A stretch of 64,000 nucleotides of DNA from a virus: positions 44,515 to 108,514 of the IMG/VR virus record IMGVR_UViG_3300005613_004097. One strand, given 5' to 3'. Below are positions 56,210-59,480 of the stretch, piece by piece. The stretch's first letter is position 1, and every line of letters begins with the position of its first letter. The position numbers and the translations under genes were made by a program. Below the pieces are notes generated by a model, which saw only the letters and a list, made by a program, of their open reading frames with translations, did not search any database and was not told the DNA's origin.

Positions 56210-56445
56210 TTTATTGTGTCATTTTTATAAGCTTCTACAAAATCTTCAAATTTAAACTCTCTTTTTTCGGTTGAACTACCACCCCAATATATATCCTCCC
56301 AAACATATTCAACTGAATCATCATTCACATAAACAATATCTCTTATGCAATTTGCATAATCAACTTCCAAGTAATAATCTCCAATGAATCCTTTTGAGAA
56401 TATTGTATTCTCATCCATCCATTTTATAAATTCTTCTCTTTTCAT
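56203..56445 (-). CDS. Hypothetical protein
   Basis: ORF directly downstream of the tRNA-Gln cluster. Confidence 0.6.
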   Translation of the reverse strand: MKREEFIKWMDENTIFSKGFIGDYYLEVDYANCIRDIVYVNDDSVEYVWEDIYWGGSSTEKREFKFEDFVEAYKNDTIKW

Positions 56446-56462
56446 TTCATTTAGTTTTTTAG

Positions 56463-56530
56463 TTGTCCTGGTAGGATTCGAACCTACATAAACTTCTCGT
56501 CTCCTGATTCAAAGTCAGGGACACAGGACA
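56463..56530 (-). tRNA. D-armless tRNA-Gln(UUG)-like RNA
   Basis: Acceptor TGTCCTG/CAGGACA, anticodon arm CCTGA-CTTTGAA-TCAGG, T arm GTAGG-TTCGAAT-CCTAC; only 4 nt where the D arm should be. Confidence 0.75.
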
Positions 56531-56537
56531 ATTTTAG

Positions 56538-56611
56538 ATGGGATGCTCAGAATCGAACTGAGATAAATGGGACCAAAACCCATTGTAATAAAACCGTTAT
56601 ACGACATCCCA
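56538..56611 (-). tRNA. tRNA-Gln(UUG)
   Basis: TGGGATG/CATCCCA acceptor; ATGGG-TTTTGGT-CCCAT; CTCAG-TTCGATT-CTGAG. Confidence 0.93.
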
Positions 56612-56621
56612 ATATTTTCAG

Positions 56622-56692
56622 TTGCCTTGCCAGGATTCGAACCTGAACTACGAAGGCCAAAACTTCGTGTGCTGCCGTTACACTACAAGGCA
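56622..56692 (-). tRNA. tRNA-Gln(UUG)
   Basis: TGCCTTG/CAAGGCA acceptor; CGAAG-TTTTGGC-CTTCG; TCAGG-TTCGAAT-CCTGG. Confidence 0.95.
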
Positions 56693-56694
56693 AT

Positions 56695-56728
56695 AAAAAA
56701 CCCGTTCAATTTGAGATTGAACGGGTTT
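56695..56728 (-). terminator. Attenuator terminator immediately upstream of the tRNA-Gln cluster
   Basis: AAACCCGTTCAAT-CTCAA-ATTGAACGGG-TTTTTT, ending 2 nt before the tRNA 5' end. Confidence 0.9.
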
Positions 56729-56756
56729 GTATCTTTACTTTTTATCAGACAATACT

Positions 56757-56816
56757 CTACCAGTCAATCTCTCGATCGATTTGCTGTTGTTGGTATTGTT
56801 GAGTAAAAGTTGTCAT
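56757..56816 (-). CDS. Gln-rich attenuator leader peptide MTTFTQQYQQQQIDREIDW
   Basis: Six Gln codons in seven positions (CAA CAA TAC CAA CAA CAG CAA); contains GAGATTGA, complementary to the terminator 5' arm/loop. Confidence 0.88.
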   Translation of the reverse strand: MTTFTQQYQQQQIDREIDW

Positions 56817-56820
56817 TTCT

Positions 56821-56885
56821 TTATATATTATATTTTTATTTCTTTGTTTTACAAATGTAAGGATTATTTTTTAATTGACAAAATA
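56821..56885 (-). promoter_or_regulatory. Dual promoter of the Gln leader (Bacteroidota sigma-A type plus phage late-type motif)
   Basis: TTTG...TACATTTG upstream, then TAATATATA 4 nt before the leader ATG. Confidence 0.65.
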
Positions 56886-56970
56886 ATTAGTGACTTTCCT
56901 AGTAAAATACCCAATAAAATGTGTTTGGACAGGAGAAAGCGTTAGTATTAAAAAGTCCAATTGACTTAAC

Positions 56971-57207
56971 TTAGGGGTAATTTGAGATCCAAAGTTCAAC
57001 TTCCATGTTACCCATCCTTTTAATATTATCGGATGATATGCTCCAGTTGTGCATAGATCCTCCATCACCCCAAAACAAACCAGCATCAAGAACACACCCG
57101 GTTTTATTAAGTCTCTCTAAATATTCGATAGACTCTTCTAAACTTTCGAAATCCGCCATCTTTTCATATTCACTATCATAAACAACTACTGATATATACT
57201 CAATCAT
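56971..57207 (-). CDS. Hypothetical protein
   Basis: ORF downstream of the tRNA-like RNA. Confidence 0.55.
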   Translation of the reverse strand: MIEYISVVVYDSEYEKMADFESLEESIEYLERLNKTGCVLDAGLFWGDGGSMHNWSISSDNIKRMGNMEVELWISNYP

Positions 57208-57221
57208 TTTTTTTGTTTTAG

Positions 57222-57308
57222 TGTGAGTGGGTGGAGTCGAACCACCATTTACCTCACAGGAATCGAACCCATACGGATGCCTCCGTTAGTCACCAAGACT
57301 TCACTCAC
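57222..57308 (-). ncRNA. tRNA-like RNA with two T-loop hairpins and no canonical anticodon loop
   Basis: GTGAGTG/CACTCAC acceptor; AGTC-TTGGT-GACT; ACGGA-GGCA-TCCGT; ATGGG-TTCGATT-CCTGT; GGTGG-TTCGACT-CCACC. Confidence 0.65.
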
Positions 57309-57644
57309 TTTTGTAAAGGTAATTGAAAAAAATTAATTTTTCAAAAAATATATACAATAAAATAAAAATAAAAATTATCATCCTGTATTATATCATCGTT
57401 ATGATAGGTGCAAGCTGGAAAGTAATAAAAAAAGAAATCTAAAATGATACTACTTTCATGTAGGTGTAATGATGACGCACATATCATCAAAATCACTGAA
57501 TGAATAATGTGATAACTATTATCAAAAATAAAAATGAAAATATTCCCAATACAGCTAGAAATGTTCTTAGCGTTGGTCCAGTAAAAAAATTGGCAATTTT
57601 AGATTTAAGTTTATTCATGTATGTATATATTAAAAAATTAAGGA

Positions 57645-58478: not shown

Positions 58479-58545
58479 AATAAAAACTCTATTTTTAGTA
58501 TATATTAAAAAGTTGGCGGCTCGTTTGAGAATTGAACCTATTATG

Positions 58546-58641
58546 TCAGGGAAGGGGGATTCGAACCCCCGGAAGACGCACCCCTTGCGCCTTCACCAGA
58601 TTCCAAGTCTGGCCGCTTCAACCTAACTCGCGCATTCCCTG
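58546..58641 (-). tRNA. tRNA-Pro(UGG) with an abnormally long variable arm
   Basis: CAGGGAA/TTCCCTG-A (C1:G72, A73); CCAGA-CTTGGAA-TCTGG; variable stem GAAGGCGCA-AGGGG-TGCGTCTTC; GGGGG-TTCGAAT-CCCCC. Confidence 0.85.
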
Positions 58642-58649
58642 ATATTTAG

Positions 58650-58891: not shown

Positions 58892-58897
58892 TATTAC

Positions 58898-58977
58898 TAT
58901 ATATTAAAATATTTTTCTTCCTTTTTTATTTTAGACTACAAAGATACAAAAGTTTTTTAATTGCCAAAATTTATTTT
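58898..58977 (-). promoter_or_regulatory. Dual promoter cassette of the Asp/Pro leader (repeat copy 1)
   Basis: TTTG...TATCTTTG plus TAATATATA; near-identical to 59400-59480. Confidence 0.75.
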
Positions 58978-59399: not shown

Positions 59400-59480
59400 T
59401 ATATATTAAAATATTTTTCTTCCTTTTTTATTTTAGACTACAAAGATACAAAAGTTTTTTTAATTGCCAAAATTTATTTT
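59400..59480 (-). repeat. Direct repeat copy 2 of the 80-bp promoter cassette
   Basis: Same as 58898-58977 except one extra T in a homopolymer. Confidence 0.9.

Follow-up and report, generated by a model that had tools for sequence, protein, structure and literature searches.

Attenuation of transcription by a translated leader peptide is textbook knowledge for amino-acid operons and for pheST. In the hisL and trpL leaders of E. coli and Salmonella, a short translated ORF carries a run of control codons (seven His codons in hisL), four RNA segments can form the alternative hairpins 1:2, 2:3 and 3:4 with an intrinsic terminator, and the stop codon lies where a ribosome that terminates on it will block segment 2. 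In E. coli pheM-pheST, a synthetase is attenuated through codons of its own amino acid. T-boxes of aminoacyl-tRNA synthetase genes also sense tRNA charging and switch between terminator and antiterminator ahead of the synthetase. A further point of comparison is the trn operon of Anabaena PCC 7120, an inducible tRNA array (PMC8421152) for which the repressor TrcR has been reported as the controller (PMC10272220). Neither 'attenuat' nor 'leader peptide' occurs in the text of these two papers, with 'leader' wholly absent from PMC10272220, and the huge-phage paper of Al-Shayeb et al. 2020 (PMC7162821) makes no mention of leader-peptide attenuation of tRNA genes. A full-text literature search returned no account of leader-peptide attenuation with tRNA genes as its target, and none in a phage.

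The window analysed here, a stretch of 64,000 nucleotides from the IMG/VR virus record IMGVR_UViG_3300005613_004097, was found to carry on its minus strand an arrangement that we regard, with considerable confidence and on computational grounds throughout, as a ribosome-mediated leader-peptide transcription attenuator whose direct output is phage tRNA-Gln genes and, further along, glnS. Such control probably means that the phage makes tRNA-Gln and glnS only when ribosomes read Gln codons slowly. The region is about 70% identical at the DNA level to the 'uncultured phage' records LR745206.1 (634,780 bp) and LR756502.1 (642,428 bp), and the glnS protein has relatives of 56-71% identity on IMG/VR contigs of up to 519 kb; the window was therefore taken to be a fragment of a huge phage. 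The parts of the predicted unit, in the order of transcription, are as follows.

56882-56852, minus strand: putative promoter of the Bacteroidota type, TTTG-N19-TAcaTTTG (pattern scan)
About 56833-56825, minus strand: TAATATATA-like box, 5 nt before the leader ATG
56816-56757, minus strand: leader ORF of 19 codons plus TAG, MTTFTQQYQQQQIDREIDW (ORF reading; homologous Gln-run ORFs at related loci)
56801-56781, minus strand: control codons CAA CAA TAC CAA CAA CAG CAA, six Gln (five CAA, one CAG) in seven
56779-56774, minus strand: segment 1, TCGATC, the anti-antiterminator, pairing with GATTGA of segment 2 in minimum-energy folds when the ribosome is absent
56771-56760, minus strand: segment 2, the antiterminator 5' strand GAGATTGAcTGG, which mimics the terminator 3' arm and would be covered by a ribosome at the stop codon
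56728-56698, T-run to 56695, minus strand: segments 3 and 4, predicted intrinsic terminator with a 13-bp stem, a 5-nt loop and six T (no 3'-end data)
56692-56621, minus strand: tRNA-Gln(UUG) no. 1 (ARAGORN; Rfam 59.4 bits)
56611-56537, minus strand: tRNA-Gln(UUG) no. 2 (ARAGORN; Rfam 53 bits)
56530-56463, minus strand: tRNA-Gln(UUG)-like no. 3, without a D arm (Rfam 39.9 bits, permissive filters only)
56445-55847, minus strand: two small ORFs of 80 and 120 aa, function unknown, between the tRNAs and glnS
55780-54176, minus strand: glnS, glutamine--tRNA ligase, last gene of the predicted unit (TIGR00440, 646 bits; Pfam tRNA-synt_1c)

Among 1,187 short ORFs of the 108.5-kb contig, the leader is the only one with at least five Gln in seven residues, and Gln makes up 3.6% of the codons in the contig's long ORFs. 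The pattern scan returned nine promoter sites in the window against 2.9 expected, two of which precede the window's two leader ORFs; that the host belongs to the Bacteroidota is an inference from this promoter type. A sigma-70-type scan ranked TTGTAA-16-TATAAT at 56854-56827 (minus strand) at the top. Many long ORFs, and both leader ORFs, also have a TATATA box (TTAATATATA) at a distance of 4-7 nt, or in some cases about 20 nt, upstream of their ATG (for example at 56825-56833, 58897-58905 and 57623-57631, all on the minus strand). The box probably serves as a promoter or start motif specific to the phage, from which mRNAs with hardly any leader would arise. Those Gln leaders of relatives that lie directly behind another tRNA cluster were without the box.

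Two side observations concern the same stretch. The leader stop is TAG in the window, whereas it is TGA in relatives; reassignment of TAG was considered, but with TAA ending 46, TGA 42 and TAG six of the 94 long ORFs of the contig, the standard code was judged adequate. The promoter sequence TTTGGCAATTAAAAAA(A)CTTTTGTATCTTTG is present in two near-identical copies at 58939-58968 and 59441-59471, with a similar one at 56852-56882 (all minus strand), and the junction of 56843 with 58928 in contigs of relatives points to a rearrangement between the promoter repeats.

The terminator 5' arm occupies 56728-56716, and the hairpin folded alone reached -16.6 kcal/mol; the whole leader RNA of the window gave a fold z-score of -6 against shuffles. 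Within the leader, GAGATTGA (56771-56764) is perfectly complementary to TCAATCTC (56720-56713) in the arm, and the pairing extends to GAGATTGAcTGG, giving 11 pairs with one mismatch and a duplex of -13.4 kcal/mol (z -2.3). The control-codon segment additionally takes part in a long-range helix with GTATTGT at 56755-56749. With the T-run ending at 56695 and the first tRNA gene starting at 56692, 2 nt lie between them, and from 56698 onwards no terminator-like site was found until one at 54187-54158, just after glnS.

Downstream of the two complete tRNA-Gln genes, the third retains the UUG anticodon loop and was missed by ARAGORN. A contig of an about 95% identical relative has 14 extra nt, GTGTAATGGCAACA (minus strand), at 56522/56521, the exact position of the D arm, and these restore a normal D arm; the armless gene of the window is therefore a recent D-arm deletion and not an old design. 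The two small ORFs gave no Pfam match above cut-off. The stretch that holds them is variable, contigs of relatives skipping 56217-56456 or 56259-56531, and as glnS of most relatives starts about 35 nt after the last tRNA-Gln (the gap being 20-35 nt), the two ORFs were interpreted as insertions. A contig from an RNA library, from an about 95% identical relative, runs from 56763 across the terminator and the tRNAs to the end of glnS. It was not counted as evidence, as assembled contigs of public runs cannot show transcript ends or levels and DNA carry-over cannot be excluded.

Most of what a preliminary description of this DNA had proposed for the layout was met by these results. The promoter and the 19-residue Gln-rich ORF at 56816-56757 were recovered by pattern scan and sequence reading, the intrinsic terminator at 56728-56695 was seen as a 13-bp stem with six T and a tRNA start 2 nt on, the complementarity between leader and terminator arm proved exact, and the supposed lack of a terminator before glnS held for the interval from 56698 to 54187-54158. 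Of the three tRNA-Gln(UUG) genes proposed, nos. 1 and 2 were borne out by ARAGORN and Rfam, whereas no. 3 has no D arm. The suggestion that glnS is probably controlled as well gained support from its direct coupling in relatives, through the short gap and through one related unit (L006) without a tRNA gene.

Two further observations on tRNAs were made. A tRNA-like element at 57222-57310 (minus strand), in which a 7-bp stem resembles an acceptor and two TTCGA hairpins resemble T-loops, received no ARAGORN call, its only Rfam match being tRNA-Sec at 19 bits. In the clade, normally short tRNAs (Pro, Gln, Asp, Asn) measure 82-98 nt, apparently through long variable arms (window 58545-58642, minus strand; L001, L002, L008, L010 and others).

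A short ORF with a Gln run before a strong terminator was observed at 15 distinct related loci, all on huge-phage or metagenome contigs (the window, labelled WIN, and L001, L002, L003, L005, L007, L008, L010, L012, L013, L014, L040, L122, L133 and L006). The run consists of four to seven consecutive or nearly consecutive Gln codons, for example MTTTQQIQQQQINQTD, MKNLTLQQQQQMIKLD, MVNITINIQQQQQQQT... or MTYFYDIFQQQQQQS..., and in every case shares its frame with an ATG that lies 4-9 codons upstream, indels and differing N-terminal sequences and lengths notwithstanding. The leader stop lies 21-32 nt from the terminator at all Gln loci, and the terminators of related loci range from -14 to -29 kcal/mol. 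At 14 of the 15, the terminator stands 2-13 nt (about 58 nt in L013) before a tRNA-Gln cluster, in most cases with glnS directly behind it; in L006 (377-495), which has no tRNA gene here, the Gln leader and terminator are followed at once by an ORF and glnS. Across 1.14 Mb of fetched loci, 27 of the 34 short ORFs with at least four Gln in six residues were these leaders or related Asp/Pro leaders. The unit is not present at every such synthetase locus, being absent from L009 (glnS with tRNA-Gln) and from L011 (glnS alone).

CAG shifts its position within the run among relatives while the run is always in frame, so that the constraint lies on Gln codons in a reading frame. Apart from the Gln run and the RNA-pairing segment, leader residues vary. 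AGATTGA, by comparison, was kept in all 11 alignable relatives, and is constant as nucleotides despite a different frame: relatives read it as GAT TGA, the window as G ATT GA. Several relatives lack a separate promoter for the Gln leader, which there lies directly behind Asp/Pro tRNAs; two attenuators are thus chained in series, in the order Asp/Pro, Gln, glnS.

To represent the moment of decision, the leaders of 14 loci, including the window, were folded truncated just before the terminator 3' arm. With the mask placed as for a ribosome that stalls at the last Gln codons, the antiterminator was the minimum-energy fold at all 14 loci (P 0.53-0.92), and with the mask moved to the stop codon, the antiterminator pairing was lost at these loci (P 0.01-0.42). 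In the window, the probability of the 5' arm pairing upstream was 0.65 for the stalled ribosome versus 0.14 for the ribosome at the stop. There, a ribosome stalled at codons 10-12 would cover segment 1 while segment 2 stays free. A footprint of +12 nt from the last Gln codon stops short of GAGATTGA, and the leader stop lies within segment 2 or 6 nt after it, falling inside the antiterminator strand in most relatives; the pairings of the window show the full 1:2, 2:3 and 3:4 logic. For the full-length leader at equilibrium, however, the terminator had a P of 0.96 under every ribosome mask. The switch must therefore be kinetic, with the antiterminator forming first, as classical attenuators likewise require. 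A stable anti-antiterminator was predicted in five of the 14 loci (the window, L012, L122, L133 and, weakly, L013) and not in the other nine, and an untranslated leader would consequently give read-through in most relatives.

Cognate duplexes between leader and terminator arm ranged from -9.3 to -15.6 kcal/mol, with z-scores of -1.6 to -4.6 against shuffles. Four loci (L012, L014, L133 and L006) have unrelated terminators, and in each case the locus's own leader fits best. For 13 units that differ in their terminators, the energies of the cognate duplexes add up to -149.5 kcal/mol, compared with a mean of -87.5 (sd 8.3) after re-pairing, and none of 110,084 re-pairings reached the observed sum. 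In the antiterminator region, RNAalifold recovered the 7-bp helix AGATTGA:TCAATCT, a core that is invariant in the main group, with no pair changed on both sides. Its invariance within the main AGATTGA group speaks neither for nor against pairing, and the evidence from matching changes is confined to the four lineages with swapped terminators and to the other amino-acid families. For the terminator hairpins, aligned with MAFFT, RNAalifold returned no base pairs, the arms having been misaligned by indels; per-sequence folds were used for the terminators in place of this alignment, and paired changes in the terminator stems are visible in the raw sequences of related loci.

The proposed mechanism would proceed as follows, leader translation, termination, read-through and the physiological trigger all being inferred. 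Transcription would start either from the 56882-56852 promoter or from the TATATA box immediately upstream of the ATG, and a ribosome would translate the 19-codon leader. When charged tRNA-Gln is plentiful, the ribosome would reach the stop codon and cover segment 2 (GAGATTGACTGG), the terminator at 56728-56698 would form, and the transcript would end 2 nt before the first tRNA. When CAA and CAG are decoded slowly, the ribosome would stall on Gln codons 9-12, covering segment 1 and leaving segment 2 free; the latter could then pair with the terminator 5' arm once this is transcribed, no terminator would form, and RNA polymerase would read into the tRNA-Gln genes, the two small ORFs and glnS. 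If no ribosome were present, segments 1 and 2 would pair, in the version found in the window, and the terminator would form. The net effect would be a negative feedback loop steadying Gln decoding capacity during infection. Such a scheme would need close coupling of transcription and translation in the presumed Bacteroidota host, where the degree of coupling is unknown. Anticodon-nuclease defence or starvation as the trigger is pure inference.

Units of the same kind for other amino acids were sought in the tRNA regions of five huge-phage records, under the rule that a tRNA have a terminator at most 45 nt upstream and that a short ORF end at most 90 nt from this terminator. The following leaders were found.

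Leader KKKKK, then four tRNA-Lys
Leader TSKSSSRSSS, then tRNAs Arg and Ser
Leader NISIAVIGNGAGAI, then tRNAs Ile, Met and Gly
Leader MNLNMNMNLT..., then tRNAs Asn, Arg, Leu, Val, Ile and Thr
Leader NPQPQ..DQDPD, then tRNAs Asp and Pro; also in the window

Serine is encoded by both TCN and AGY codons in the Ser/Arg leaders. In a weaker Phe/Ser unit, the leader is also enriched in residues of the tRNAs behind it. Concordance was assessed over nine units, one representative per family, with derangements as re-pairings; the weak Trp (L012, one Trp codon), Phe/Ser and Met (L019) units were retained, the Met unit of L019 being probably just a neighbouring terminator. The fractions of leader residues served by the downstream tRNAs sum to 2.5, whereas derangements gave a mean of 0.97 (sd 0.17) and a maximum of 1.81, and none of 133,496 re-pairings reached the observed concordance. 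The member of this series in the window lies upstream of the Gln unit and is made up as follows.

58968-58733, minus strand: sister attenuator, from its promoter (58968-58939) to the terminator end, of the same design as the Gln unit
58891-58790, minus strand: Asp/Pro leader ORF of 33 codons, containing NPQPKGLNDLDPDR
58819-58809, minus strand: antiterminator strand GTGACTAACTG, complementing CAGTTAGTC in the terminator arm
58764-58733, minus strand: predicted terminator, abutting tRNA-Asp
58726-58649, minus strand: tRNA-Asp(GUC)
58642-58545, minus strand: tRNA-Pro(UGG)

Homologues of the Asp/Pro unit with an NPQPQ..DQDP(D) core were present in eight relatives. The design is not universal for the tRNAs of this phage, since the tRNA-Arg at 11650-11576 has neither leader nor terminator. 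As a separate observation, an Asp/Pro-type leader in L013 (2259-2413) has kept the GACTAACT strand, which fits the ancestral terminator, while the terminator itself has been replaced by an unrelated hairpin with which the cognate duplex reaches no more than -3.4 kcal/mol, and tRNA-Gln comes first among the tRNAs that follow; this unit looks like one caught in the middle of rewiring.

The preliminary description had likened the locus to attenuation of the trp, his and pheST type, and had named a lack of conservation of the Gln run and the pairing in homologous loci as grounds for rejecting the idea. Run and pairing have been retained over the 15 loci, and the trp-like logic is upheld by the conserved run, by the matching changes of leader and arm, and by the masked folds, which on truncated transcripts yielded the predicted mutually exclusive hairpins at 14 of 14 loci. 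For the other check that it proposed, a search of related phages for short ORFs before tRNA genes with a test of codon-anticodon concordance, no equally good re-pairing was found among the 133,496.

As an alternative, the hairpin might be a terminator that is constitutive and leaky, or might serve in processing or insulation; it could then set a low fixed tRNA level or aid 5' maturation, the ORF being no sensor at all. This would fit the far greater stability of the terminator over the antiterminator at equilibrium, the want of a stable anti-antiterminator in most relatives, and those arrangements in which the Gln leader directly follows Asp/Pro tRNAs and the terminator also closes the upstream transcript. 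A fixed hairpin, however, leaves unexplained why an in-frame Gln run is conserved, why a leader segment tracks the terminator arm, and why leader and tRNA match in seven other families, and we consider it unlikely. The locus might also hold a chance low-complexity Gln repeat beside an ordinary terminator, or a functional Gln-rich micropeptide; although short CAA repeats arise easily in AT-rich DNA (33% G+C), the ORF is the only one of its kind in 108.5 kb, such ORFs always lie beside tRNA-Gln or glnS, and conservation is limited to the Gln run and the RNA-pairing segment, so that this reading is scarcely credible.

A different objection is that the CAA run may be read directly by RNA or protein, either as a T-box-like specifier for uncharged tRNA-Gln or as a binding site for GlnRS or another protein. 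The complementarity of CAA to the UUG anticodon is compatible with this, and aminoacyl-tRNA synthetase genes are often under T-box or autoregulatory control. A T-box covariance model, however, gave no match over 56300-57400 even at E up to 5, nor did any other Rfam family; for the Rfam leader families there was no match at the gathering threshold, the best sub-threshold scores being those of Trp_leader and Thr_leader at about 18 bits (best 18.3, E about 1). Direct reading is further opposed by the constant frame of the run, with a nearby ATG and stop despite indels, by CAA/CAG synonymous variation that shifts within the run, and by the stop codon inside the antiterminator strand in most relatives, while the mixed TCN and AGY serine codons of the Ser/Arg leaders indicate that the constraint is on amino acid and frame and not on an RNA word. 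Recognition without translation was accordingly judged very unlikely, and ribosome-mediated attenuation by the leader peptide remains the preferred explanation.

The Gln unit is thus a real and well-supported variant of leader-peptide attenuation, and its tRNA-gene target seems undescribed, none having been found in the literature. Since amino acids and terminators differ from one instance of the design to the next, it has evidently been rebuilt or retargeted repeatedly in evolution. A wider reading, which we hold to be as likely as not, is that these huge phages monitor decoding codon by codon through a modular system, with each tRNA cassette behind its own codon-sampling leader and the charged tRNA that is sensed being also the product, as direct feedback. 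Under this reading, the phage could replace exactly those host tRNAs that run short, for instance after host tRNA cleavage. If the units work as proposed, huge phages would meter each tRNA set by the real-time speed of decoding and would not simply dump tRNAs, using a simple, portable and codon-specific sensor; the long-standing question of what phage tRNAs are for would become directly testable, as the leaders would spell out the codons that the phage treats as limiting.

Set against the described systems, the phage unit is built like hisL and trpL, with six Gln codons in place of the seven His codons of hisL, but its output is tRNA genes and a synthetase and not enzymes of amino-acid biosynthesis; it is also phage-encoded, has a presumed Bacteroidota host, and shows no sequence or Rfam relationship to them. 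For the glnS half, and for L006 with no tRNA gene in between, the nearest counterpart is E. coli pheM-pheST. Unlike the phage unit, however, pheM controls no tRNA genes, whereas in the phage the tRNAs come first and the molecule sensed is the product. The T-box differs in binding tRNA directly and without translation, where the phage leader is a conserved ORF. The Anabaena trn array resembles the phage unit in that extra tRNA genes stay silent until translation is impaired, but it is bacterial and not a phage system.
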